Assembly (NCBI GenBank): GCA_000743035.1
Contig: CP008936.1
Span: 480,001-512,000, forward strand
From: Candidatus Paracaedimonas acanthamoebae
GTDB taxonomy: Bacteria > Pseudomonadota > Alphaproteobacteria > Caedimonadales > Caedimonadaceae
Length of the DNA stretch: 32,000 nt
Reading direction: 5' to 3'
A program made the translations under genes and the position numbers. The notes under the pieces are model-generated. The model saw only the letters and a list, made by a program, of their open reading frames with translations, made no database searches and was not told where the DNA came from. This document shows positions 401 through 29,850 of the stretch, piece by piece. Numbering within the stretch: the stretch's first letter is position 1; the number at the start of each line of letters is the position of its first letter.

Positions 401-598
401 TAAATTTAATCATGCATATTTTTATATATCTTCACATTTTATAGTTCTAAAAAGTAGTTTTCACTACTCAACTATTAAAGCCCGAATGAGGTGTAAAGCT
501 CCCAAATTTAGTACCAGGGGGTCGTGTAGTTTTCCGTGTTTTTTATGAATAAACTATATTCATTAGGCGTCATATTTTTTTGATCTTGCTACAAAAAT

Positions 599-1474
599 TT
601 AGACATTGTGAACTGAGATGGTTTGATTTTTGTAATGATTGTATTCCCACTGATTTGGACTTTGATAGTTGAGTGTCGAGTGCCTCCTTTTAGAGTTATA
701 AAATGTGAATATGTATTCAAAGATATCGGTTTTTGCTTCTTCTAAAGTTTTATAGTTCTTAAAATAGACATGCTCTGTTTTAAGCGTATGAAAGAAGCTC
801 TCCATTGCAGCATTGTCATAAGCACATCCTGTTTTTCCATGACTCAGTTTTATTCCATGAGTTTGAGCTATTTCATAAAGGTTATTGCTTGTATATTGGC
901 TCCCCATATCAGAATGATGAATAAGCCCTGAAGGAGGTCTCCTTAATAAGAGAGCTTGATTAAGTGCTGCTAAAATTAAAGAACTTCTCATGTGATCACT
1001 CAAAGCCATTCCCACCACTTTTCGAGAGAATAGATCAAGAATAATAGCCAGATAAGCCCAGGTTCTATTGATGGCAATAAAAGTAATATCTGCGGCCCAA
1101 ATTCTATTAGGAAGAGGAGAATAAAAATTCTGCTGAACGAGATCCTGGGTTGGACGAGTGATATTTTCTGAACGTTTTGTTGTTTTAACAAACTTCCTAT
1201 ACATCTTGGCTTGGATATCATTCTTCTGCATCAATCGAGCGACTTTAACTCGAGAACAAAAAGTTCCCTGAGCACAAAGTTCTGCATGGATCCGAGGACT
1301 GCCATAAGTTTCTCGGCTCTCCTCAAAAATAGTCCTCATTCTTTTAACAGTCTCAGTGTTCTCCAGTTCTCTCTTGCTGGGACTCCTTTTAATAAAATCG
1401 TAATACCCACTGCGAGAAACCCCTAAGACTTGCGCCATCTGATCCAAGGAAAATAAAGTGGTATGATGCTTCAT
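599..1474 (-). CDS. IS3-family transposase OrfB (DDE/rve catalytic core)
   Basis: 291 aa. DDE contexts WAADITFI, HHSDMGSQYTS and YDNAAMESFF. N-terminal LGVSRSGYY HTH. Translation identical to 28957-29832. Confidence 0.95.
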   Translation of the reverse strand: MKHHTTLFSLDQMAQVLGVSRSGYYDFIKRSPSKRELENTETVKRMRTIFEESRETYGSPRIHAELCAQGTFCSRVKVARLMQKNDIQAKMYRKFVKTTKRSENITRPTQDLVQQNFYSPLPNRIWAADITFIAINRTWAYLAIILDLFSRKVVGMALSDHMRSSLILAALNQALLLRRPPSGLIHHSDMGSQYTSNNLYEIAQTHGIKLSHGKTGCAYDNAAMESFFHTLKTEHVYFKNYKTLEEAKTDIFEYIFTFYNSKRRHSTLNYQSPNQWEYNHYKNQTISVHNV

Positions 1475-1522
1475 GAATTCGTACCTTTGCCTCGGGGTTC
1501 GGAGAAGATGGCAACTGCTTTC

Positions 1523-2887
1523 CTAAGAAACTCCCTGTACCAAGTCCTGCATTTTATTCTCTTGCAATATATAACCTAAAGCAGCAGCTCGCTTTGATAA
1601 GTTATCAAGAACCCGCTTTTGATATCGTGCCTCATAGTAATTGGCACCTGGATCAACATATTGCATTCCATAACGCAGAGCATTAAAAAATAATACTGCC
1701 ATTTTTCTAGCTGTTGCAGTAATTGCCTTTGATTTACCAATGCGAGCCGAGAGTCGTCTATAAAACGCACCAAGAGCCGTATTTGTCTTTCCAATTGTTA
1801 CAGCAGCCAATCTTAATGCTGCTGCCGCACGACTTGAGGAACGCCGTGTTCGTGATGATAATACTTTCCCTCCTGATACCTTATTCCCTGGAGAAAGACA
1901 TAGCCAAGAAGTAAAGTGCTTGCTGCTCGGCCAGCGAGACATATCAGTGCCACATTCTGATATTAATTTTAAGGCTAATGAAGGTCCAACACCGTGTATT
2001 TGTGTTAAGTCCATTCCTAATGCTTGGTAAAGGGATGCTCTTACATCAAAGCTTAAGCTATTAGGTTGTTTAGTGCGATGCCTGGCTTTGGGTAGAGGTT
2101 GATCAGGCAACTTATTATCTTTTCCAAGCAAGCTTAATGTCTCTTCTATTCGACGATCACACTCATTAATTTTTTGTGTGTAATAATCGAATAATTCAAC
2201 AGCTTGAGTTAAAGAAAACAAATGCTCTTCTTGATAATTACCCTTTAAGGATTCCTCAATAGTTTTAATGGATTCCTTACAACGTATGTCTCTATGTTCT
2301 GCTAATACAGCAGGGCAACGTTCACCATTCATAATCGCACGAATGATCTTCATGCCTGTGGCTCCCGTTATATCCGATACGACATGATGCAACTGTAAGT
2401 TCATTTGCATTAAAGCTTTTTGCATATGCTGGATATGAGAGGCTCTGAATTCAAGCATACGTTCACGTTGTCTAATATAAGCACGTAGCACAGTAATTTG
2501 TTTTTCTGGTCTGAAGCTAGCACGTAACAAACCAAATTGATGTAACCGTTGAATCCATTGCGCATCATTGACGTCTGTTTTACGTCCAGGAACATTTTTA
2601 GCTTCTCGTGGATTAACTAAAAATACCTCAAAACCATAATTCTCTAAGATCTCAAAAGCAGGAATCCAATAAATACCTGTGGATTCCATAGCAATGCTGG
2701 TGACCTCACAGCTTTTAAGCCATTTTGCCATAGCATGTAAATCTGTGGTAAAACTTTGAAACGTACGAACTGGTTCTTTTGCTTTATCACTCCCTACAGC
2801 AACAACGTGAAACTTAGCACCAATATCAATCCCAGCAGCATTTTGATGAATAATTGGCATACTGGATTGTCTGTTAGATTGAGTCAT
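1523..2887 (-). CDS. IS110-family DEDD transposase/recombinase
   Basis: RuvC-like N-terminus (GIDIGAKFHVVAV, IAMESTGIYW, KTDVNDAQ) and C-terminal HhH/Tnp domain (IHGVGPSLALKLISECG, SPGNKVSGGK). The ATG at 2887 follows AAGGAGAAGAGG; the ORF track starts one codon earlier at a GTG (2890). Confidence 0.92.
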   Translation of the reverse strand: MTQSNRQSSMPIIHQNAAGIDIGAKFHVVAVGSDKAKEPVRTFQSFTTDLHAMAKWLKSCEVTSIAMESTGIYWIPAFEILENYGFEVFLVNPREAKNVPGRKTDVNDAQWIQRLHQFGLLRASFRPEKQITVLRAYIRQRERMLEFRASHIQHMQKALMQMNLQLHHVVSDITGATGMKIIRAIMNGERCPAVLAEHRDIRCKESIKTIEESLKGNYQEEHLFSLTQAVELFDYYTQKINECDRRIEETLSLLGKDNKLPDQPLPKARHRTKQPNSLSFDVRASLYQALGMDLTQIHGVGPSLALKLISECGTDMSRWPSSKHFTSWLCLSPGNKVSGGKVLSSRTRRSSSRAAAALRLAAVTIGKTNTALGAFYRRLSARIGKSKAITATARKMAVLFFNALRYGMQYVDPGANYYEARYQKRVLDNLSKRAAALGYILQENKMQDLVQGVS

Positions 2888-2890
2888 CAC

Positions 2891-3120
2891 TTACCTCTTC
2901 TCCTTGTTTATCTATAGAATCAAAGAGCAGGGTAACGAATAAATCACTTTCCTAAACGGGGTTTGTACCTCCAATGCCGGGTTCGTTGTACTCCCTGGAC
3001 CATGTTTTTTAACGGGGTAATCCACCAATAAGCAGACGGCCGCTCTCTTTGATAGCTCAACTTTAGCAGTTAACGAGCGCGAGTTTCTATTTATTAGGGA
3101 AAGGGGTGCCATTTAGGTGG
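2891..3120 (-). ncRNA. Candidate bridge (seek) RNA in the IS110 left end, copy L
   Basis: Mirror of 27311-27540; see that feature and its finding. Confidence 0.4.
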
Positions 3121-3389
3121 TTTTTTAAGATATCTCGCTCCTGGCGAACAAGATAAAGCTCCCGCTTAAGCGCTCTTAATTCTTCCTCAACAACATGGCC
3201 ACTGCCAGGAAAACTTCTCTCTCCCTCACGCCGGTATTGTTTAATCCAGTGCCCTAAACTGGCACGCGAAATCCCTAAATCTAAAGCGATCTTCTCAATG
3301 CTCTTGTCATTACTCAAATAAACTTTAACCGCATTAATTTTAAATTCTTTATCGTATTTCTGGGTCATGTTCTCTCCTTTCAATAACAT
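3087..3389 (-). CDS. IS3-family OrfA (HTH) with its 3' end replaced by IS110 sequence
   Basis: 100 aa with an HTH (IEKIALDLGISRASLGHWIKQY) and a leucine-zipper-like tail. The last roughly 10 codons (NHLNGTPFPNK) read into the IS110 left end. Confidence 0.85.
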   Translation of the reverse strand: MLLKGENMTQKYDKEFKINAVKVYLSNDKSIEKIALDLGISRASLGHWIKQYRREGERSFPGSGHVVEEELRALKRELYLVRQERDILKNHLNGTPFPNK

Positions 3390-3434
3390 TAACCCATCTC
3401 GGTTCCTTGTGTCCGCTTTATTGTAGCAAGATCA

Positions 3435-3790
3435 TTCTTGATAAGATCTATAAAACGATCATAATGGACAAGCCTAGGGAATAAATGGCGATGATAACGA
3501 CATAAGTCCAGATAAAAGTATTTAAAACAGGCCATTCCAGATTGATGATAAGCAATTAGAATTGTGAGAACTTCAGATAATGTTAAATGCCCTTCTCTGC
3601 GGCGCCTTATCGAATGGTCAGATAGTAATTGCTTCTTATACCAAGGCTCAAAGCCTTTACAAAAGTTATCGACACAATAAAACAATTTATCGTAATTTAT
3701 CACCATTGAGGTAGCTCCCTATTTTTTCAAATCGAGTTTACCTCAATACCCCCAATACTTTAACTATTATTCCTTATCCACAGTTCGGGT
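3435..3790 (-). pseudogene. IS982-family transposase, N-terminal remnant plus left end
   Basis: MVINYDKLFYCVDNFCKGFEPWYKKQLL...LTLSEVLTILIAYHQSG...FKYFY is a typical IS982 N-terminus. It is cut at 3434/3435 by the IS3 end, so the tail of ORF 3389-3706 is IS3-derived. Confidence 0.7.
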
Positions 3791-4033
3791 TAACATACAA
3801 TACACTCGATAAACCCTCTTATGATTCCATCTATGGCCCATTTGCCGAATCTTTATAAATAATTTCTTAAAACCATAACGAGGATACCTTTCTGTCAGCT
3901 CTAATAAAGTGCTCATAACATCCTCATCTTTTTTATCTGCCGGCTGATAACGATAAACTGAACGACTCAACTTAAGAGCATAGCAACTCCGTCGATAACT
4001 AAGTCCATGTGTTGACACCAGATAATCAACCAT
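3791..4033 (-). pseudogene. IS3-family OrfB, 5' fragment
   Basis: MVDYLVSTHGLSYRRSCYALKLSRSVYRYQP...YPRYGFKKL...WNHKRVYRVY is a typical OrfB N-terminus. No DDE core follows. Confidence 0.75.
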
Positions 4034-4053
4034 CTCTCTCTTCTCAGCCGGCT

Positions 4054-4320
4054 TTAGAGCTTTTTTTCAATCAAATCCTTCAAAGCTCTTGCCTCAAGTG
4101 AAAGATCAGCAAACATTCGTTTCAAACGGTTGTTTTCTTCTTCCAAGAATTTGAGACGCTTCATATCCAGGGCCTCCATCCCTCCATATTTTGAGCGCCA
4201 TTTAAAATACGTGGATTCAGCAATCCCATGTTCCCGACAAACATCTTTTACTAATCGACCTGATTCAACAGATCTCAAAATCCCTATAATCTGATATTCA
4301 CTAAAGCGTTCTTTCTTCAT
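4054..4320 (-). CDS. IS3-family OrfA (HTH)
   Basis: MKKERFSEYQIIGILRS...GIAESTYFKWRSKYGG plus a leucine zipper. The ATG at 4320 is preceded by AAGGAGG. The ORF track extends upstream to 4368. Confidence 0.85.
   Translation of the reverse strand: MKKERFSEYQIIGILRSVESGRLVKDVCREHGIAESTYFKWRSKYGGMEALDMKRLKFLEEENNRLKRMFADLSLEARALKDLIEKKL
4060..4066 (-). promoter_or_regulatory. A AAA AAG programmed -1 frameshift heptamer of the IS2-like remnant
   Basis: The orfA frame reads att gaa aaa aag ctc taa. The -1 frame continues KKALKPAEKREMVDYL into orfB'. Confidence 0.7.
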
Positions 4321-4713: not shown

Positions 4714-7700
4714 CTAAACCGAAGGAGGCTCACATTTAACAATAGCTCGAACATCACTCTGCTTGTCACTAACCATTTTTGCTAAATGCTTGATTGTTGG
4801 ATTAGAGAAGCATTCACTAATTGAGAGTGAAACTCCATAATGTGCTTTAATACGTAGAGTTACTTTATTAAGTAGTAAGGAGTGTCCTCCAAGTTTGAAG
4901 AAATTATCTGTAGTTCCTACTTGTTTTACATTAAGAATCTCAGACCAAATCTTGCATATTTCTTCTTCAACCTTATTTTTAGGTTCCTCGCTTGCAACTG
5001 CATCTATTAATTCTTGCTGTTGTATAGTCGGTAGCTTCTTTCGATCAATCTTACCATTAACTGTAAGAGGGAAGTTATCAACTTGTATGAATTTTGTTGG
5101 GACCATGTATTCGGGGACTTTTTGTATAAGATAATTCTTTATGTTTACAAATAGTTCTCTATTTGATTTTTCACCTTTGGCTTCATCACGTATCTTTATG
5201 TAGGCAATTAAACTACACTCACCTGCGGCATTAGTATTGCAAATGACTGCAGCTTTTTCTATTAACATGTTGAGATTAAGCAGACTCTCGATTTCACCTA
5301 GCTCAACTCGAAACCCCCTTATTTTTATTTGATGGTCGCGGCGTCCTAAGTATTCAATTGTACCAGTACTGCAGTATCTTGCAAGATCCCCTGATCTATA
5401 CATTTTACTGCTCTTATTGCAATCTGTACCAGTTTCTGAGGAAAATGGGTCAGTAATAAACCTTTGTTCTGTCAATTCAGGTCTGTTTAAATAACCATCA
5501 CTAACCCCATCTCCTCCTACATACATCTCTCCTATAACTCCTTCAGGTACTGGGGTGAGGTTGTCATCAAGAATATAAATTTTAGTATTATCTAATGGAG
5601 CACCAACTGGAGAATAAGGAGATCTTGAGTCTATGTGGTTTTTAGTAAGTTTTAAATAGGTTGAGTAAATAGTAGTTTCGGAAATGCCGTACATATTTGT
5701 CAGTTGTTGGTTTTTATCATGATAAGCATTCCACCACCACTCAAGCTTAGAAACTTCCAACTTTTCTCCGGCAAGAATAATATGCCGCAATTTGAGGTTT
5801 TTACGGAAATTAGATTGATTTGCAAGTATGAGAGAATCAAATGATGAGGGGGTTTGTGTTAAGATGGAAACTTCCTCTTTTTCAAGAAAGCTTAGAAATG
5901 CTTGAGTATCTTTTTTGATCTCGGTAGGTACAATAACTAGTTCCCGGCCATAAAGCAAAGCTCCCCATATTTCCCATACAGATAGGTCGAAAGTAAACGA
6001 GTGGAAAAGGCAAAAAGTATCTTCCTTATTAAAGTTGAATAAATGCTCACATGCACGGAATAAAGAAATCACATTTTTATGGCTAATAAGGGAGCCTTTA
6101 GGAAGGCCAGTTGACCCAGAAGTATAAATAATATAGGCGGTGTTATCTAGGGAAAATGATAATTCTAGATTTTCCAATGGCTGTTTTTCTATTTCTTCGT
6201 TATTGCCATCTAGGGTTATAATGATATTTTCATATGATTCATATCGATCTTTAAAAGAATTATTTGTTAATAATAATTCTACATTAGCGTCTTTGAGTAT
6301 AGAATCTATCCTATCCAGAGGATAAGAAGGATCTATAGGAACGTAGGCTGCTCCTGTTTTCATAACCGCTATCATAGCAATAATCAATTCAATAGAACTT
6401 TCTAAGCTTATAGCAATAAGTTTGCCTTTATTTGCTCTTTTCGTAATAAGGTAATGTGCGAGCTGATTTGATCGCTCGTTTAGCTGGCTATATGTTAAGG
6501 TACGACCATTAAAACGAAGACAATTCCTGTGAGGATATTTAGAAACTTGGTCTTCAAATATCTTAATTATATTTTCTTCCGGAAGATTAAAAGATAAATA
6601 CTCATGATTAAACTTCTGAAGAATATTATTTTTCTCTTCCTGTGAGAGTATAGGTAATATACTTATCTTACTACCAACATTATCAACAATACTGTAAAGA
6701 AGAGTTATGTAACTCTGCAGAAGATTAGAAATAGTATATTCCTTGAATAAATCTTCTGCATATTCTGCTTGAATTTCTAGCTGAGATTCTTGTTCTTGTA
6801 TAAAGATGGTTAAATCAAACTTAGAATAACTTCTTCCTTCCTCAGTTATTTTTGTCTTTATACCATCAAGATGTAAGAATTTATTCCAATCTTCTCTTGC
6901 AGTAAATAAAAGCTGGTATAAGGGGTTGCGATTTAATACACGGGGGATATTAATTCTCTTCACAAGCATATCGAAAGGAACATCTTGGTTGTCCTGAGCT
7001 GATGATAGAGTTTCTTTTAATGCTTCTAATACTTCTAAGAAGCTCATTTCTTCGCGTAAGACTAGGCGCAGAGGCAGCGTATTCATGAGCAAGCCAATTA
7101 ATTTGTCAGTGCCAGCATATACTCTACCTGAAACTGGCGTTCCTATGATTAAATCATTCTGATGTGTATAACGATAAACCAATACATAGAATGCTGAGAG
7201 TAAAACAGTGAATAAACTTGTATGATATTTTTCTGAGAGCTTTCTTAGTTGATTGGTTAGTTGCTGAGGAATAGCATGAGTAATAGTTTTACCACTATAC
7301 GATAAGGTTTCTGGTCGCTCAAAATCAGGCGATAAAGTAGTCAGATCTGCAGCCTGAGAGAGATGCTCTTGCCAAAAGCTAATTTGCCGTTCCATGGTGC
7401 TTGGTTTGAGAAATTGCCTAAACCAAGACGAATAGGCTTTATAAGTAAATGATGCTTCTGGAAAAGAGAGGGAAGGAACTTTTCTCAGCTTATTATATGT
7501 TTCAGAGAGCTCATCCAGAAATAAAGTTATTGATTGCCCATCAAGAATAATATGATGAAAATTTAGAACTAAAATATGATGATTTTCATCTATTTTAATA
7601 AGGCCTGCTTTAAAAAGAAATGGCTTAGTTAAATCAAACGTATGAAAAATAGTTTCATTAATTAAGCGCTCAAGAATTTTACTTTTAGAGCTACCATTAT

Positions 7701-9966
7701 AACTTGAAATATCATCATAGAAAATATCAATTGGTTCAATTGAGCTAAAATCTTGTATAAGTAATCCTTCGATCTCTTTAAAAAAAGTCCGTAAAGCGTC
7801 ATGCTTGATAACAAGAGCTTTTATAGAAGAAATTAAAGCTTCAGAGTTTAAATCACCAAATAAATCAATGCTGAAAGGTAAGTTGTATACTCTTTTTTCT
7901 GAGAGAAAAGAATCTAAAAACCACAAACGTTGCTGTGAAAAATTGGCTGGTATAGAATTAGAACCTTGAGGCTGGTTTGCTAAATTAAGCTCTTGTTCTA
8001 CCCAGTTTTCAATAAGATAGTTAAGTGTTTGAGCTATTGAATTATTAGAAGAGAATACAATAGAAGATGGAATTGTTTGCAATAAATCACGATGGATTCT
8101 TGCTAAGAATAAAGTCAACTTTACAGAATTGAATCCTAGACTAGTGAGACTCTTTTCCAAATCTTGTTGATTAAGAGAGATACCCAAAATATGTGAAGCT
8201 AACTGAAGAAGGTAGCTGCTCAACAATTTTTTTCTAGTTTCTAAAGTACAGGTAAAAACATTAGAAGATATCTGAGGTTCAGGTATAAGCATATCACTGC
8301 TAAAGCCGTCTTCTTGCGCCACAATAGAAAGCTTATGCTCTAAATAAAGTTTTTTACATAATTGTCTTTGTACCTTCCCGCTAGAAGTTTTTGGGAGGCT
8401 TCTCTCACGAAGTAAAACAATTTTATAAGGCACTATTTCATGATTTTCATAGAGTTGCTTTCTAATTAAATTATAAAGCTTATTAAAATCTCGAAAATGG
8501 CGATGGACTTCTTGGACAACAATTATGTTCGCTTCATGCCCATCATTTTCTATAGAGAAAACAGCGCAACTATTGCTCAATAAGGCAGTATGGCTATTTG
8601 AGGTTGTTTCTTCAATATCTTGGGGGTATATGTTTTGGCCATTTAAGATAATTAAGTCTTTCAACCGACCGCTAACATAAAGATTATTATCAGCGTCTAA
8701 AAAGCCGAGATCTCCTGTTTTTAAGTATTGCTTATTATTTTCTACTAGAGTAGCAAAGAAAGTCTCTTTTGTGATCTCGGGTTTTCCCCAATAGCCTGCG
8801 GCGATGCTTGATCCATATAGCCAGATCTCTCCTTCTTCATAAGGTTGGCATATTGCTCTAGTGGTAGGATTTACGATAATTAATTCATGATCTTTAGCAG
8901 CTTGGCCACAATTTATAAGCCCCTGTGGATGTTCATCTGTTTTATGTAGACTAATTTTCTTTTTAGATGCAACAAAAAGTGTTGATTCTGCAAGGCCATA
9001 GGCAGGATATAAAGAGAAAGGGTTAAATCCTGCTGTAGCAAAATTTTGGATAAAGTTCTCCATAACTTTATTACTTATAGGTTCTGCACCGTTAAAGACA
9101 ACTTTGAGAGAACTTAAATCTAATTCTTTTATTTGCGAGTCAGTGATAACTTTTGAGCATAAATCAAAAGAAAAATTTGGTGCTCCTGTTATAGTAGCTT
9201 TTTGCTCCGTTATTATTTTTAGCCATTTAAAGGGTTCTTGCATGAATGATTGGGGTGACATGAAGCAGCATTTAAATCCACAAAATAAAGGAAATAATGT
9301 ACCGAATATAAGCCCCATATCATGGTAAGAAGGTAACCAGCTAACCATAACATGTTCATCCAAAGGTATTTCATCCTGAATAACATCCTTAATAAGCACA
9401 AGGTTTGTCATAATATTTTCGTGTGAAATAATAACCCCTTTTGGTTCTCCTGTCGAACCTGAGGTATATTGTAAGAAGGCTATTTTATTTTGTCTGTCTA
9501 AGGTTAGAAGATTGGCTTCGGTATCAATGAAATTCAAAAAACTAACATCCTCAATAAATATCAAAACTTCACCACGCGTTGTTAACAAACTAGTATCAAA
9601 ATTATTGAGAGATTTCTGAGTAATAATAAATTTGGCTGCGCATGAGTTTTGGATAGCTTGTACTCGTGTTGCTCGTTTGTTATTAGTTGGTAAATATACG
9701 GGGACAGCAACTGCATTTGCGGCGAGGCAGGCTAGGAAAGAAATAATATAGTCTATACCCTGAGGCAATAAGATTAAAACTCTTTCATTTGCGCAATTAT
9801 TATTTTTAAGCTTGTTTGCTAATATTGAAGTTCTTTCATAAAGCTCTTTATATGTAATGGTTTGTATTATGTTATCATGGTTATAAAAAACATATGCTTC
9901 TCTTCGAGGTGTATGTTTCGCATGATGGTGAAGACTCTCTAAAATTGTTTTTTTTAATGTATTCAT
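4714..9966 (-). CDS. NRPS lipo-initiation module: FAAL - ACP - C - A - PCP (1,750 aa), no TE, R or E domain
   Basis: FAAL motifs YTSGSTGEPKG, WLPSYHDMGL, GAPNF, KTGDLGF, GRLKDLIILNGQNIYPQDIE (aa about 1-550). Carrier 1 LGFNS (Ser614). C domain QQRLWFL and HHIILDGQS (aa 804-812). A domain YTSGSTGLPKG, NMYGISETT, GEMYVGGDGVSDGY, YRSGDL, GRRDHQIKIRGFRVELGEIE, NGKIDRK. Carrier 2 LGGHS. Confidence 0.93.
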   Translation of the reverse strand: MNTLKKTILESLHHHAKHTPRREAYVFYNHDNIIQTITYKELYERTSILANKLKNNNCANERVLILLPQGIDYIISFLACLAANAVAVPVYLPTNNKRATRVQAIQNSCAAKFIITQKSLNNFDTSLLTTRGEVLIFIEDVSFLNFIDTEANLLTLDRQNKIAFLQYTSGSTGEPKGVIISHENIMTNLVLIKDVIQDEIPLDEHVMVSWLPSYHDMGLIFGTLFPLFCGFKCCFMSPQSFMQEPFKWLKIITEQKATITGAPNFSFDLCSKVITDSQIKELDLSSLKVVFNGAEPISNKVMENFIQNFATAGFNPFSLYPAYGLAESTLFVASKKKISLHKTDEHPQGLINCGQAAKDHELIIVNPTTRAICQPYEEGEIWLYGSSIAAGYWGKPEITKETFFATLVENNKQYLKTGDLGFLDADNNLYVSGRLKDLIILNGQNIYPQDIEETTSNSHTALLSNSCAVFSIENDGHEANIIVVQEVHRHFRDFNKLYNLIRKQLYENHEIVPYKIVLLRERSLPKTSSGKVQRQLCKKLYLEHKLSIVAQEDGFSSDMLIPEPQISSNVFTCTLETRKKLLSSYLLQLASHILGISLNQQDLEKSLTSLGFNSVKLTLFLARIHRDLLQTIPSSIVFSSNNSIAQTLNYLIENWVEQELNLANQPQGSNSIPANFSQQRLWFLDSFLSEKRVYNLPFSIDLFGDLNSEALISSIKALVIKHDALRTFFKEIEGLLIQDFSSIEPIDIFYDDISSYNGSSKSKILERLINETIFHTFDLTKPFLFKAGLIKIDENHHILVLNFHHIILDGQSITLFLDELSETYNKLRKVPSLSFPEASFTYKAYSSWFRQFLKPSTMERQISFWQEHLSQAADLTTLSPDFERPETLSYSGKTITHAIPQQLTNQLRKLSEKYHTSLFTVLLSAFYVLVYRYTHQNDLIIGTPVSGRVYAGTDKLIGLLMNTLPLRLVLREEMSFLEVLEALKETLSSAQDNQDVPFDMLVKRINIPRVLNRNPLYQLLFTAREDWNKFLHLDGIKTKITEEGRSYSKFDLTIFIQEQESQLEIQAEYAEDLFKEYTISNLLQSYITLLYSIVDNVGSKISILPILSQEEKNNILQKFNHEYLSFNLPEENIIKIFEDQVSKYPHRNCLRFNGRTLTYSQLNERSNQLAHYLITKRANKGKLIAISLESSIELIIAMIAVMKTGAAYVPIDPSYPLDRIDSILKDANVELLLTNNSFKDRYESYENIIITLDGNNEEIEKQPLENLELSFSLDNTAYIIYTSGSTGLPKGSLISHKNVISLFRACEHLFNFNKEDTFCLFHSFTFDLSVWEIWGALLYGRELVIVPTEIKKDTQAFLSFLEKEEVSILTQTPSSFDSLILANQSNFRKNLKLRHIILAGEKLEVSKLEWWWNAYHDKNQQLTNMYGISETTIYSTYLKLTKNHIDSRSPYSPVGAPLDNTKIYILDDNLTPVPEGVIGEMYVGGDGVSDGYLNRPELTEQRFITDPFSSETGTDCNKSSKMYRSGDLARYCSTGTIEYLGRRDHQIKIRGFRVELGEIESLLNLNMLIEKAAVICNTNAAGECSLIAYIKIRDEAKGEKSNRELFVNIKNYLIQKVPEYMVPTKFIQVDNFPLTVNGKIDRKKLPTIQQQELIDAVASEEPKNKVEEEICKIWSEILNVKQVGTTDNFFKLGGHSLLLNKVTLRIKAHYGVSLSISECFSNPTIKHLAKMVSDKQSDVRAIVKCEPPSV

Positions 9967-12672: not shown

Positions 12673-13860
12673 TTATAGGTTGTCTTGGTTTGAAGTTAAC
12701 TTTTTAATCTTACCTCCAAAAAACTCTGTCGCTTGTCTTAAAGACTCATCAGCCAAGTGAGCATATCTCTGTGTAGTTGAAGCTTGGGTATGACCTAAGA
12801 GTTTGCCTACAATATGCAGGCTCAAACCGCTAGATACCAAATGTGAAGCATGGGTATGTCGTAAATCATGAATGCGAACATTTTCAAATTCAGCTTCTTT
12901 TATGACTTTTTTCCAAAAAGTTTTAATTTCTTGTAAGGGTTGTCCTTCAATTTTGCTTGGAAAAAGATATGGTGAATTTTCTTTCTTAAATTTCTTAATA
13001 TCGTGAAGAACATCAATGGTTTTTTCTGAAAGGGGCAAATATTCTTTCTTTTTTTGCTTTGTTATGTGTGATGGTTTTGTCCAAATGCCTTTTTCAAGAT
13101 CAAACTGGTCCCACGTAGCTTGAAGAACTTCTCCTTTTCTGGCGCCAGTAAGAAGTAAAAATTTGAAGACGTAAGTCGTGAGGTGATGATTATATTTGTT
13201 TAATATAGACCATAGTCGTTGCAATTCTGTATCATTAAGCCATCTGTCGCGTTTTTCTTCTTGATATTTCTCAATGTCTTGAGCTGGATTATCTTCGCGC
13301 CAACCCCATTCTTTAGCAAGGCTAAACATTTTACTTAATAAAGATCGTACTCGATTGGCGAGGTACGGTTTATTTTTTAAATCACGGTGTAATTTTTGAA
13401 GTTCATACGAGGTGATTGATTTGATACCTTGTTTTCCAAACTTGGGTAATATGATAGAGGAAATCATATGAATATCATCACTAACACTTTTAGTGCGTTT
13501 GTTTACTTTTGCATGTAATTCTAAATATTCTTTGGTAAGGTCAGTTACGGTAAATGCTATTTTTTTCTCTTTAATATTGGTGGCTGGGTCTTCACCTAAA
13601 CTGATTTTTAATGAAAGGTGTTTAGCTTTTTCGCGTGCTTCTTCAGCTGTTATATTGCCATGAACTCCTATTTTAATTTTATGAGTCTTATGGAATTCAT
13701 TACGATATTGAAAAAAATAAGTCTTACGTCCTGTAGGATAAATTCGTAAATTAAAGCCCGTAATTTCAGTATCCCACACAAAAAGACGTTTAGTAGAATG
13801 GGCTGTCGCCGCTTCAACAGCTCTCTTTGTGAGTTTTATCTTATTAATTGATTGCATCAT
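12673..13860 (-). CDS. Tyrosine recombinase, P4-type phage/island integrase
   Basis: N-terminal arm-binding-type domain (LTKRAVEAA...FVWDTEITGFNLRIYPTGRKTYFFQYR). Catalytic TGARKGE, HDLRHTHAS and LGHTQASTTQRYAH. Confidence 0.9.
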   Translation of the reverse strand: MMQSINKIKLTKRAVEAATAHSTKRLFVWDTEITGFNLRIYPTGRKTYFFQYRNEFHKTHKIKIGVHGNITAEEAREKAKHLSLKISLGEDPATNIKEKKIAFTVTDLTKEYLELHAKVNKRTKSVSDDIHMISSIILPKFGKQGIKSITSYELQKLHRDLKNKPYLANRVRSLLSKMFSLAKEWGWREDNPAQDIEKYQEEKRDRWLNDTELQRLWSILNKYNHHLTTYVFKFLLLTGARKGEVLQATWDQFDLEKGIWTKPSHITKQKKKEYLPLSEKTIDVLHDIKKFKKENSPYLFPSKIEGQPLQEIKTFWKKVIKEAEFENVRIHDLRHTHASHLVSSGLSLHIVGKLLGHTQASTTQRYAHLADESLRQATEFFGGKIKKLTSNQDNL

Positions 13861-13939: not shown

Positions 13940-14051
13940 ATAAGATTAGATTGAGAGCAATTTTTATAAATTCAGAAAGAAGAATAAAAATTAAAAAATT
14001 AATAAAAACAATATAATAATTATATTAATATAGGTAGGTAGATATAAAAAC

Positions 14052-14103
14052 CTTCTGACTACGGATCAGAAGGTTAGGAGTTCGAATCTTCTCGGGCGCG
14101 CCA
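14052..14103 (+). tRNA. Orphan 3' half of tRNA-Arg(ACG): anticodon arm, variable loop, T arm, 3' acceptor strand and CCA. No 5' half.
   Basis: Stem TCTGA/TCAGA with loop CTACGGA (anticodon ACG). T arm AGGAG-TTCGAAT-CTTCT. Then CGGGCGC-G-CCA. The matching 5' acceptor strand GCGCCCG and the D arm are absent upstream, where the sequence is pure AT-rich spacer. Confidence 0.8.
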
Positions 14104-26483: not shown

Positions 26484-26996
26484 ATGAGTCTCAGCATAAG
26501 GTTCCATGGATCTTATATTGCTTTGTTAGCAGAATTATTGCTACATTCCCTATCTTTTAGCTCTGGCATTCATAAAGATCTTAGGGAATATGAGTGGGAA
26601 GATATCTATCAAATAGGACTAGTCTCAAACGCTGCTTATTATTACTTTAATTGTGCAAACGATGTTAAAACTAGCATGGAAGAGTTAGAGCAAGCTGGTT
26701 GGGCATGTAAATTGATAGGAGATGGTCCTTTTCATGTCATACGAGCGGAGTATGGTCCTCTTGTTGTTTTAGGCTTTAAGGGCACAACTAAGACAGAAGA
26801 TTATGCCTCCGATTTAAATGCAATCAGATTAACTGTCACAGAGAGTGAACAACAAGGGGTCGCCCATCGCGGAATTTATTCTTATACAAAAAAATTACCT
26901 GCTTCTATTAATGCTCTTTTTAATCCAGATGATGGTGATGAGCTTCTTGTTCTTGCTGGGCACAGTCTAGGTGGAGCAGTAGCGCAATTAAAGGGA
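26484..26996 (+). pseudogene. Class-3 (fungal-type) lipase, N-terminal part truncated by the IS3 end
   Basis: VVLGFKGTTKTEDYASDL, GVAHRGIY and the nucleophile elbow AGHSLGGAVAQ. The IS terminal TG begins at 26997, 7 codons after the Ser. Confidence 0.75.
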
Positions 26997-27041
26997 TGAT
27001 CTTGCTACAATAAAGCGGACACAAGGAACCGAGATGGGTTA

Positions 27042-27344
27042 ATGTTATTGAAAGGAGAGAACATGACCCAGAAATACGATAAAGAATTTAAAATTAATGC
27101 GGTTAAAGTTTATTTGAGTAATGACAAGAGCATTGAGAAGATCGCTTTAGATTTAGGGATTTCGCGTGCCAGTTTAGGGCACTGGATTAAACAATACCGG
27201 CGTGAGGGAGAGAGAAGTTTTCCTGGCAGTGGCCATGTTGTTGAGGAAGAATTAAGAGCGCTTAAGCGGGAGCTTTATCTTGTTCGCCAGGAGCGAGATA
27301 TCTTAAAAAACCACCTAAATGGCACCCCTTTCCCTAATAAATAG
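27042..27344 (+). CDS. IS3-family OrfA (HTH) with its 3' end replaced by IS110 sequence
   Basis: Identical to 3087-3389. It diverges from the IS3 consensus after ...RQERDILK at the A-run at 27305-27310. Confidence 0.85.
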   Translation: MLLKGENMTQKYDKEFKINAVKVYLSNDKSIEKIALDLGISRASLGHWIKQYRREGERSFPGSGHVVEEELRALKRELYLVRQERDILKNHLNGTPFPNK

Positions 27345-27540
27345 AAACTCGCGCTCGTTAACTGCTAAAGTTGAGCTATCAAAGAGAGCGGCCGTCTGCT
27401 TATTGGTGGATTACCCCGTTAAAAAACATGGTCCAGGGAGTACAACGAACCCGGCATTGGAGGTACAAACCCCGTTTAGGAAAGTGATTTATTCGTTACC
27501 CTGCTCTTTGATTCTATAGATAAACAAGGAGAAGAGGTAA
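27311..27540 (+). ncRNA. Candidate bridge (seek) RNA in the IS110 left end
   Basis: 230-nt relatively GC-rich non-coding end 5' of the recombinase gene. Two homologous modules (ATTGGTGGA..ACCCCGTT at 27402-27420 and ATTGGAGGT..ACCCCGTT at 27456-27476) are each followed by a junction-matching string. Confidence 0.4.
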
Positions 27541-27543
27541 GTG

Positions 27544-28908
27544 ATGACTCAATCTAACAGACAATCCAGTATGCCAATTATTCATCAAAATGCTGCTGGG
27601 ATTGATATTGGTGCTAAGTTTCACGTTGTTGCTGTAGGGAGTGATAAAGCAAAAGAACCAGTTCGTACGTTTCAAAGTTTTACCACAGATTTACATGCTA
27701 TGGCAAAATGGCTTAAAAGCTGTGAGGTCACCAGCATTGCTATGGAATCCACAGGTATTTATTGGATTCCTGCTTTTGAGATCTTAGAGAATTATGGTTT
27801 TGAGGTATTTTTAGTTAATCCACGAGAAGCTAAAAATGTTCCTGGACGTAAAACAGACGTCAATGATGCGCAATGGATTCAACGGTTACATCAATTTGGT
27901 TTGTTACGTGCTAGCTTCAGACCAGAAAAACAAATTACTGTGCTACGTGCTTATATTAGACAACGTGAACGTATGCTTGAATTCAGAGCCTCTCATATCC
28001 AGCATATGCAAAAAGCTTTAATGCAAATGAACTTACAGTTGCATCATGTCGTATCGGATATAACGGGAGCCACAGGCATGAAGATCATTCGTGCGATTAT
28101 GAATGGTGAACGTTGCCCTGCTGTATTAGCAGAACATAGAGACATACGTTGTAAGGAATCCATTAAAACTATTGAGGAATCCTTAAAGGGTAATTATCAA
28201 GAAGAGCATTTGTTTTCTTTAACTCAAGCTGTTGAATTATTCGATTATTACACACAAAAAATTAATGAGTGTGATCGTCGAATAGAAGAGACATTAAGCT
28301 TGCTTGGAAAAGATAATAAGTTGCCTGATCAACCTCTACCCAAAGCCAGGCATCGCACTAAACAACCTAATAGCTTAAGCTTTGATGTAAGAGCATCCCT
28401 TTACCAAGCATTAGGAATGGACTTAACACAAATACACGGTGTTGGACCTTCATTAGCCTTAAAATTAATATCAGAATGTGGCACTGATATGTCTCGCTGG
28501 CCGAGCAGCAAGCACTTTACTTCTTGGCTATGTCTTTCTCCAGGGAATAAGGTATCAGGAGGGAAAGTATTATCATCACGAACACGGCGTTCCTCAAGTC
28601 GTGCGGCAGCAGCATTAAGATTGGCTGCTGTAACAATTGGAAAGACAAATACGGCTCTTGGTGCGTTTTATAGACGACTCTCGGCTCGCATTGGTAAATC
28701 AAAGGCAATTACTGCAACAGCTAGAAAAATGGCAGTATTATTTTTTAATGCTCTGCGTTATGGAATGCAATATGTTGATCCAGGTGCCAATTACTATGAG
28801 GCACGATATCAAAAGCGGGTTCTTGATAACTTATCAAAGCGAGCTGCTGCTTTAGGTTATATATTGCAAGAGAATAAAATGCAGGACTTGGTACAGGGAG
28901 TTTCTTAG
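27544..28908 (+). CDS. IS110-family DEDD transposase/recombinase
   Basis: Identical to the copy L protein. The stop TAG at 28906-28908 is 2 nt from the element end. Confidence 0.92.
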   Translation: MTQSNRQSSMPIIHQNAAGIDIGAKFHVVAVGSDKAKEPVRTFQSFTTDLHAMAKWLKSCEVTSIAMESTGIYWIPAFEILENYGFEVFLVNPREAKNVPGRKTDVNDAQWIQRLHQFGLLRASFRPEKQITVLRAYIRQRERMLEFRASHIQHMQKALMQMNLQLHHVVSDITGATGMKIIRAIMNGERCPAVLAEHRDIRCKESIKTIEESLKGNYQEEHLFSLTQAVELFDYYTQKINECDRRIEETLSLLGKDNKLPDQPLPKARHRTKQPNSLSFDVRASLYQALGMDLTQIHGVGPSLALKLISECGTDMSRWPSSKHFTSWLCLSPGNKVSGGKVLSSRTRRSSSRAAAALRLAAVTIGKTNTALGAFYRRLSARIGKSKAITATARKMAVLFFNALRYGMQYVDPGANYYEARYQKRVLDNLSKRAAALGYILQENKMQDLVQGVS

Positions 28909-28956
28909 GAAAGCAGTTGCCATCTTCTCCGAACCCCGAGGCAAAGGTACGAATTC

Positions 28957-29832
28957 ATGAAGCATCATACCACTTTATTTTCCTTGGATCAGATGGCGCA
29001 AGTCTTAGGGGTTTCTCGCAGTGGGTATTACGATTTTATTAAAAGGAGTCCCAGCAAGAGAGAACTGGAGAACACTGAGACTGTTAAAAGAATGAGGACT
29101 ATTTTTGAGGAGAGCCGAGAAACTTATGGCAGTCCTCGGATCCATGCAGAACTTTGTGCTCAGGGAACTTTTTGTTCTCGAGTTAAAGTCGCTCGATTGA
29201 TGCAGAAGAATGATATCCAAGCCAAGATGTATAGGAAGTTTGTTAAAACAACAAAACGTTCAGAAAATATCACTCGTCCAACCCAGGATCTCGTTCAGCA
29301 GAATTTTTATTCTCCTCTTCCTAATAGAATTTGGGCCGCAGATATTACTTTTATTGCCATCAATAGAACCTGGGCTTATCTGGCTATTATTCTTGATCTA
29401 TTCTCTCGAAAAGTGGTGGGAATGGCTTTGAGTGATCACATGAGAAGTTCTTTAATTTTAGCAGCACTTAATCAAGCTCTCTTATTAAGGAGACCTCCTT
29501 CAGGGCTTATTCATCATTCTGATATGGGGAGCCAATATACAAGCAATAACCTTTATGAAATAGCTCAAACTCATGGAATAAAACTGAGTCATGGAAAAAC
29601 AGGATGTGCTTATGACAATGCTGCAATGGAGAGCTTCTTTCATACGCTTAAAACAGAGCATGTCTATTTTAAGAACTATAAAACTTTAGAAGAAGCAAAA
29701 ACCGATATCTTTGAATACATATTCACATTTTATAACTCTAAAAGGAGGCACTCGACACTCAACTATCAAAGTCCAAATCAGTGGGAATACAATCATTACA
29801 AAAATCAAACCATCTCAGTTCACAATGTCTAA
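28957..29832 (+). CDS. IS3-family transposase OrfB (DDE/rve core)
   Basis: Identical to 599-1474. Its ATG overlaps the reconstructed orfA stop (ATGA). Confidence 0.95.
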   Translation: MKHHTTLFSLDQMAQVLGVSRSGYYDFIKRSPSKRELENTETVKRMRTIFEESRETYGSPRIHAELCAQGTFCSRVKVARLMQKNDIQAKMYRKFVKTTKRSENITRPTQDLVQQNFYSPLPNRIWAADITFIAINRTWAYLAIILDLFSRKVVGMALSDHMRSSLILAALNQALLLRRPPSGLIHHSDMGSQYTSNNLYEIAQTHGIKLSHGKTGCAYDNAAMESFFHTLKTEHVYFKNYKTLEEAKTDIFEYIFTFYNSKRRHSTLNYQSPNQWEYNHYKNQTISVHNV

Positions 29833-29850
29833 ATTTTTGTAGCAAGATCA

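Follow-up and report, generated by a model that had tools for sequence, protein, structure and literature searches.

The window analysed here, a stretch of DNA of 32,000 nt, carries an IS110-family element nested in an IS3-family element, and it raises the question of whether the non-coding left end of the nested element encodes a bispecific RNA that could direct the adjacent recombinase to this site. The sequence-only reading of the window had proposed such an RNA within 27311-27540; this proposal is upheld by a covariance model from which the window was excluded, by helix covariation, and by guide covariation in ~160 relatives. We infer that 27383-27506 (+) is very probably the gene for a bispecific bridge (seek) RNA that serves the neighbouring DEDD/Ser recombinase. 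An IS110-family bridge RNA is of a known kind and is expected for the family.

IS110-Family Element: Boundaries, Target Site and Recombinase

Two inverted copies of an IS3-family element, 100% identical, are present in the window (581-3435 on the minus strand and 26996-29850 on the plus strand); both are disrupted, each by the same nested IS110-family element (Table 1). The insertion point is the A7G slippery site between the IS3 orfA (HTH_Tnp_1) and orfB (rve). The empty site could be read from the same IS3 in assembly GCA_006365035.1 (L165; OrfB 97% identical), where the sequence is GATATCTTAAAAAAAGCAGTTGCC, with seven A. The window junctions have six A on the left and three on the right; from seven A in the uninterrupted copy against six plus three in the window, it follows that the target is TTAAAA-AA-AGCAGTT and the core is AA, the natural target stretch being TTAAAAAAAGCAGTT. 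The non-coding left end of the element spans 230-233 nt, and the right end extends 1 nt past the stop codon.

The recombinase has the domains PF01548 and PF02371 and scores 268 bits against the NCBIfam model NF033542, “IS110 family RNA-guided transposase” (cut-off 140). Residues D22, E69, D106, D109, and S339 are invariant across the family and align to the IS621 catalytic residues in both domains; the catalytic set is intact. There are at least 8000 homologues at E 1e-20 (all 8000 candidates scored passed). Among the ISfinder representatives of Durrant Supplementary Table 5, the nearest are ISCARN20 (42% identity), ISAzo22 (38%), and ISPpu9 (37%), over ~400 aa. The relationship to IS621 is remote (E 4e-7; about 1e-7), and matches to IS4321 and IS1111C are confined to 26-28% identity over 115-150 aa (E about 1e-4 to 2e-4); full-length relatedness to IS1111 recombinases was not found in comparison with these two.

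Table 1. Features of the nested element, its target site and the putative bridge RNA (window coordinates).
Feature	Position	Strand	Remarks
IS110-family element, 1,599 bp	27311-28909	+	boundaries agree with relatives and with the empty IS3 site
AA core flanking the element	27309-27310 and 28910-28911	+	empty site has seven A
Left target plus core (TTAAAA+AA) of IS3 slippery site	27303-27310	+	
Right target half AGCAGTT in IS3	28912-28918	+	
Second identical element copy	1522-3120	-	RNA core at 2925-3048; inside second IS3 copy
Left subterminal inverted repeat AGAAACTC	27343-27350	+	pairs with GAGTTTCT at 28898-28905
Right end: subterminal repeat GAGTTTCT and terminal TAGG (left-donor half)	28898-28909	+	
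Clade-variable stem-loop with AACTGCT (27360-27366)	27351-27382	+	unalignable between clades; not a guide
Conserved core of putative bridge RNA (target-binding and donor-binding loops)	27383-27506	+	model R2
Target loop, basal stem 5' strand GGCCG	27390-27394	+	pairs with UGGUC 27429-27433
Target loop, 5' strand UCUGCUUAU, right-target guide	27395-27403	+	covaries with right flank
Hairpin 1	27404-27418	+	100% paired
Target loop, 3' strand UUAAAAAACA	27419-27428	+	left-target guide UUAAAA + core AA + C
Target loop, 3' basal strand UGGUC	27429-27433	+	
Donor loop, outer stem GGGAG	27436-27440	+	pairs with ACCCU 27498-27502
Donor loop, inner stem CGA	27446-27448	+	pairs with UCG 27493-27495
Donor loop, 5' strand ACCCGGCAU	27449-27457	+	DNA partner searched, none found
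Hairpin 2	27458-27474	+	99.7% paired
Donor loop, 3' strand UUUAGGAAAGUGAU...	27475-27492	+	UUUAGG left-donor guide; AA core 27481-27482
DEDD/Ser recombinase gene, 454 aa from ATG 27544 (GTG at 27541)	27544-28908	+	stop codon within right end

Probable Bridge RNA: Conservation and Structure

Related elements were collected at 161 loci: 80 from genomes, 80 from metagenomes, and one copy on a Citrobacter plasmid. Their left ends can be aligned from ~70 nt inside the element up to the start codon, and RNAalifold resolves them into two modules. These are pseudo-symmetric, each consisting of a basal stem, a two-strand internal loop, and an apical UGG-N-GN...N'CCCG hairpin. The two homologous modules that had been noticed in the raw sequence, ATTGGTGGATTACCCCGTT (27402-27420) and ATTGGAGGTACAAACCCCGTT (27456-27476), are at the positions claimed, and correspond to the apical hairpins of the target and donor loops plus flanking bases.

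Helices were tested in an unfitted MAFFT alignment of 42 sequences, comprising 30 pairs with one poorly supported trial helix included. The five helices that were kept are 93-100% paired in this alignment, and 17 of the 30 tested pairs have changed on both sides; none of 500 shuffles was as high as the observed values, and in slid controls pairing dropped to 34-54%. For the target-loop basal stem, 99% of cells are paired and three of the five pairs show double changes. The outer and inner stems of the donor loop are 93% and 96% paired, also with double changes, although the outer stem has two non-canonical pairs in the window. In hairpin 1 the fourth pair covaries (GC 31, AU 7, UA 2, CG 1), and the distal stem of hairpin 2 is shorter in the window than in most relatives, short forms being present also in L063 and L081. 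Compensatory and G-U changes occur in the helices, and several pairs are invariant G-U; as these would be C-A mismatches on the opposite strand, they indicate an RNA of the plus strand.

With a first covariance model, from the 42-sequence alignment, each of the 81 new loci was found to carry the RNA (E 1e-29 to 1e-7). Model R2 was then built from the 81 metagenome and plasmid relatives only, with the window excluded; it recovers every locus of the first (genome) set, and in the window it matches 27383-27506 (100.1 bits, E 1.3e-21), with matches only at both IS copies. In 161 of 161 related loci, the RNA lies upstream of the recombinase gene on the same strand. A search of Rfam 15 at gathering and permissive thresholds gave no match in this RNA region, nor did the left end of the element yield a sigma-70-like promoter. 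Single-sequence folds did not exceed shuffles in stability (z -0.86 for 27311-27540 and z +1.24 for the core), and neither the left end nor the core folded in this way into the consensus loops, which emerged from comparative analysis alone.

Target-Binding Loop

In the comparative structure, the two 9-mers to which the sequence-only reading had drawn attention occupy the same position after the homologous hairpins, in the single-stranded 3' strands of the internal loops. Both are identical to insertion junctions as claimed: TTAAAAAAC (27419-27427) to the left junction at 27303-27311, and TTAGGAAAG (27476-27484) to the right junction at 28905-28913. Chance matching in AT-rich DNA could be entertained for TTAAAAAAC, which is of low complexity and occurs five times in the window against 1.8 expected, a count reached by four of 100 shuffles. 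TTAGGAAAG, which had been called harder to dismiss, occurs five times against 0.77 expected, and four of the five are IS-borne, each of the two IS copies contributing its right junction and its internal copy. Scaled to one strand of the 230-nt left end, the expectations fall to about 0.003 (TTAGGAAAG) and 0.007 (TTAAAAAAC). The notion that all of the matches are coincidental is refuted by the covariance-model results and by the covariation described below, and retains next to no probability.

Downstream of hairpin 1, the strand UUAAAAAAC covaries with the left flank: across ~160 relatives with MAFFT-defined boundaries, the left-target guide and the left flank give a same-sense diagonal with z 7-10. 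The rare guides UUUAGGAAC, UUUGACAAC, GGCAAACGU, UUCUCAAAC, CAAGAAAC, and UUGUCAAAC each stand beside their matching flank, and variant guides pair with variant flanks in L018, L034, L036, L046, L058, L089, L106, and L115. Loci with unusual flanks and a fitting guide include TTTAGGAA/C (L018), TTTGACAA/C (L046-51), GGCAAA/CGT (L036/39), TCTCAAA/C (L058/L120/L155), CAAGAAA/C (L034), TTGTCAAA/C (L115), and TTAAGAAA/C (L106).

The opposite strand of the loop reads the other side of the site. In the window, CUGCUU (27396-27401) is complementary to top-strand AAGCAG (28911-28916), with a mismatch at the first core base (A opposite A). Across the relatives, the loop 1 5' strand gives 276 matches to right-flank bases 1-6 against 204 ± 8.8 in permutation tests (0 of 5000 shuffles), which, like the other permutation tests reported here, ignore the phylogenetic relatedness of the loci. 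Right-flank positions 1-5 are each significant, and there is an antidiagonal signal too. From these sequence comparisons, the target loop is predicted to carry two guides for opposite target strands on either side of the AA core.

A different right-target guide had been suggested in the form of AACTGCT (27360-27366), which is indeed the perfect 7-nt reverse complement of AGCAGTT (28912-28918). The complementarity stands and the guide role does not: the 7-mer is no commoner in the window than chance predicts (six against 5.4 expected), its stem-loop cannot be aligned between clades, matches to the right flank in this region across 103 relatives equal the shuffled expectation (~1.4 loci with at least 7 nt), and a covarying guide is present elsewhere, at 27396-27401. 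That AACTGCT serves as the right-target guide is accordingly extremely unlikely; the match is coincidental and falls in a stem-loop that varies between clades.

Donor-Binding Loop

The strand after hairpin 2, UUUAGGAA followed by AG, covaries with the right end of the element and with the first right-flank base. The left-donor guide follows variants of the right end, as in CTCAGG with UUCAGG, CATAGG with UAUAGG, and TTAGA with UUUAGA. With a target loop first, a donor loop second, and the former programmed for the IS3 slippery site, the arrangement read from the raw sequence is borne out by the comparative evidence.

The 9-mers had been matched to whole junctions, rather than to target or donor alone, and this has some support in that post-core bases track non-cognate DNA. 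In the donor loop, the AG (27483-27484) after the core matches right-flank bases 1-2 and is followed by a conserved UGAU; base +1 past the core tracks the first right-flank base (62 against 44 ± 3.4, 0 of 5000 shuffles), and for base +2 and the second flank base the association is weak (54 of 5000 shuffles, about 0.01). In the target loop, the C closing UUAAAAAACA matches the first base of the element, and the second base past the core is weakly associated with the element's second base (133 of 5000 shuffles, about 0.03). By analogy, the post-core bases of loop 2 resemble the handshake positions of IS621, which promote strand exchange in that element.

The guide for the right donor half was sought in the donor loop 5' strand, which is semi-conserved (AC-YY-G-NN-A-K), against the left terminus of the element (C-NNN-C...), which is variable even inside clades. 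The comparison was made in a fixed register and in all registers, and was extended to the rest of the donor-loop 3' strand and the inter-stem linker, to contiguous complements of at least 6 nt throughout the left end, and to either-sense matches with the left end's first 60 nt and the right end's last 45 nt. These searches yielded clade-level associations only, and no diagonal. Given that the 5' strand neither complements nor covaries with the left terminus, the fourth of the canonical guides is either absent or has escaped recognition. According to recent work, recognition of a half-site can be enough for IS621, which makes a three-guide RNA plausible. A small hairpin in the donor loop 5' region (A3 columns 66-70 with 77-81) was considered and rejected, being 65% paired with register shifts between clades.

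A variant of the element at the same IS3 site (L163, Logan SRR10342236) differs in base 2 of the left terminus (CTACC, against CCACC); no accompanying change was found in the left-end stretches compared. As far as its sequence goes, this pattern would fit a left terminus that is not read by an RNA guide.

Element Ends and Tandem Copies

The subterminal inverted repeat has a length of 8-9 bp, with a left extension of ~32 nt beyond it and a right terminal extension of 4 nt. The two nucleotides past AGAAAC covary with the right end (119 of 176, against 66 ± 5 in shuffles), even though the right copy of the repeat is situated within the last codons of the recombinase gene. This repeat is a genuine DNA-level feature, and it lends something to an explanation in which the repeated strings work as DNA, the internal junction copies serving recombinase binding or synapsis with no RNA involved. 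Such an explanation is very improbable, as the helices keep pairing via G-U intermediates and the invariant G-U pairs point to a single-stranded plus-strand RNA, and the recombinase family is experimentally RNA-guided.

The left-terminal hairpin is weak in the window (-0.8 kcal/mol). Its possible role as a mimic of the frameshift-stimulating hairpin of the target, a “structure match” as in ISPpu9/ISPpu10, was rejected, as neither of the two regions gives folds better than shuffles (mean z about 0). Once tandem copies are set aside, the left terminus resembles the right flank only marginally in sequence.

Head-to-tail tandem relatives are present in L035, L036, L043, L062, and L079, with GG-AAA(A)-C junctions: three or four A stand between ...TTAGG and C..., against two for a simple AA core. 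This surplus points to slippage of the register within the A run, or to a renewed insertion at a left junction that was already there. A relative 69% identical, at an IS3-type slippery site, is carried by Citrobacter farmeri plasmid NZ_CP022697.1 (L081, ~140,280-141,860), and is widespread among Enterobacteriaceae plasmids. The L081 copy may be immobilised, because its right end CTCAGT (not CTCAGG) mismatches its own donor guide UUCAGG.

Proposed Mechanism

Three guide strands of the RNA covary with their DNA partners. In the proposed mechanism, the loop 1 3' strand UUAAAAAA(C), which equals the top strand left of the insertion plus AA, would pair with the bottom strand, and the loop 1 5' strand CUGCUU would pair with the top strand right of the core. 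The loop 2 3' strand UUUAGGAA would read the right end of the element itself, the next one or two bases matching the right target flank. By analogy with IS621 and IS1111 biochemistry, the RNA would be produced, with the circular junction or read-through from the IS3 orfA as its probable source, would bind the recombinase, and would link the circularised element to TTAAAA-AA-AGCAG, where IS3-family transposase genes have their programmed frameshift site. Insertion there would split orfA from orfB.

The conserved structure could instead be a cis-acting 5' leader of the recombinase mRNA, acting on translation or stability, with the junction matches as by-products. The region is situated directly 5' of the ribosome-binding site and start codon, and ISPpu9, a relative with 37% identity, has a structured 5' UTR that inhibits translation. 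A leader does not predict three single-stranded segments that change with the flanking DNA or the right end, and the two roles are in any case compatible, bridge RNAs being thought to be processed from the leader; a leader function in place of a bridge RNA is improbable.

Comparison With Known Bridge RNA Systems

As in IS621, for which the bridge RNA has been described (Durrant 2024, PMC11208160; Hiraizumi 2024, PMC11208158), the RNA derives from the left end, upstream of a DEDD/Ser recombinase and on the same strand; the target loop precedes the donor loop, with pseudo-symmetric internal loops closed by hairpins; the guides include the 2-nt core, and conservation is higher in the donor loop than in the target loop; additional handshake-like positions read non-cognate DNA; and a long non-coding left end is paired with a short right end. 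The guide order, however, is mirrored. IS621 and ISEc21 have their bottom-strand guide on the 5' side and their top-strand guide on the 3' side, whereas here the 5' strand addresses the top strand (right half) and the 3' strand addresses the bottom strand (left half); the bottom-strand guide of the donor loop is likewise on the 3' side, unlike in IS621, and the handshake-like bases come after the bottom-strand guides. Further differences from IS621 are the AA core (CT in IS621), the right-donor guide not found here, a recombinase of 454 aa rather than 326 aa, and the 8-9-bp subterminal inverted repeat of the window element.

With the IS1111-type seekRNAs (ISEc11, ISPa11, and ISKpn4) (Siddiquee 2024, PMC11187229), the element shares a top-strand complement 5' of the bottom-strand match in the RNA, subterminal inverted repeats (within the 7-17 bp range), and a short right terminal extension (4 nt here, 3 nt there). 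In contrast to that type, the RNA is upstream rather than downstream of the recombinase gene, the left extension past the repeat is ~32 nt rather than 7, and the repeat is 8-9 bp rather than 11-13; nor does the recombinase resemble IS4321/IS1111 (E about 1e-4) more closely than it does IS621.

ISCARN20, ISAzo22, and ISPpu9 are all filed in the IS110 group (Durrant Supplementary Table 5), and the bridge RNA was scored in the left end for ISCARN20 and ISAzo22 and in the right end for ISPpu9 (Durrant et al.). The targets of ISPpu9 are REP sequences with an AG core, in contrast to IS3 slippery sites with an AA core here. No published guide map for this clade was found in the papers searched, and the layout of the subfamily (mirrored order, subterminal repeat, no recognisable right-donor guide) may be undescribed. 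Tentatively, and with more doubt than assurance, we suggest that the ISCARN20-like subfamily, with its thousands of homologues, has a third bridge-RNA architecture: IS1111-like polarity with handshake-like bases on the bottom-strand guides, a covarying repeat with a 32-nt extension, no right-donor guide, and the habit of a hyperparasite of IS3 frameshift sites. If true, the mirrored polarity and handshake-like bottom-strand bases would mean that the other strand is exchanged first, and the lack of a right-donor RNA guide would mean that the left terminus is recognised by protein, by structure, or not at all.

For the engineering of bridge recombinases, the subfamily brings another geometry, with guides in mirrored order in an RNA upstream of the gene, a recombinase that is longer, and three guides that can be recognised rather than four, together with an alignment of ~160 natural guide-target pairs. 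The window element itself is a natural case mapped in full, with AA as its core and a target rich in A, and illustrates that a bridge RNA and two of its guides can be correctly picked out by reading raw sequence.

Targeting of IS3 Frameshift Sites

Of 115 distinct junctions in relatives, ~96 end in at least five A, and many have the context GAnCGnGAyATyyTAAAAAA, which encodes ...ERDILKK... of the IS3 slippery region; insertions at IS3 frameshift sites are always in the orientation of orfA. The A-rich, IS3-type junctions indicate that the clade largely targets the frameshift sites of IS3-family elements, splitting orfA from orfB, such that one insertion-sequence family systematically splits the transposase gene of another. 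ISEc21 (IS110 type) is RNA-guided, has a non-coding region upstream, and naturally targets a conserved stretch in IS3-family transposase genes (Siddiquee 2024); in comparison, the elements considered here target a different part of IS3, the frameshift site, and have the reverse guide order. No literature on IS110-family insertion into IS3 frameshift sites was found.

Genomic Surroundings

The two IS3::IS110 composites (581-3435, minus strand, and 26996-29850, plus strand) bracket a 23.5-kb segment. Neither copy of the composite has visible IS3 target-site duplications or direct repeats, and the layout may have arisen as a composite transposon, by inversion, or through nested insertions that took place twice independently. 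A class-3 lipase ORF (26484-26999; Pfam Lipase_3, profile positions 1-79 of 140) stops exactly at the IS3 boundary, and thus appears to have been truncated by the IS3 insertion. Within the bracketed segment, just inside the left IS copy, there is a match to Rfam isrN, an Hfq-binding sRNA (3913-4055, 57 bits, gathering score 44), which is unexpected for a low-GC, endosymbiont-like genome (GC 31-40%).

A phage-type tyrosine integrase gene (12673-13860) adjoins a tRNA-like fragment at 14034-14093 (Rfam tRNA, 30.4 bits), where ARAGORN called no tRNA; together, integrase and fragment suggest an integrated island with an attachment-site remnant. The same 23.5-kb segment also holds an NRPS gene (4714-9966). 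Homologues of the IS3 OrfB are found in Caedibacter sp. 38-128 (97%) and Candidatus Paracaedimonas acanthamoebae (87%), and the host is probably a Holosporales symbiont of amoebae.
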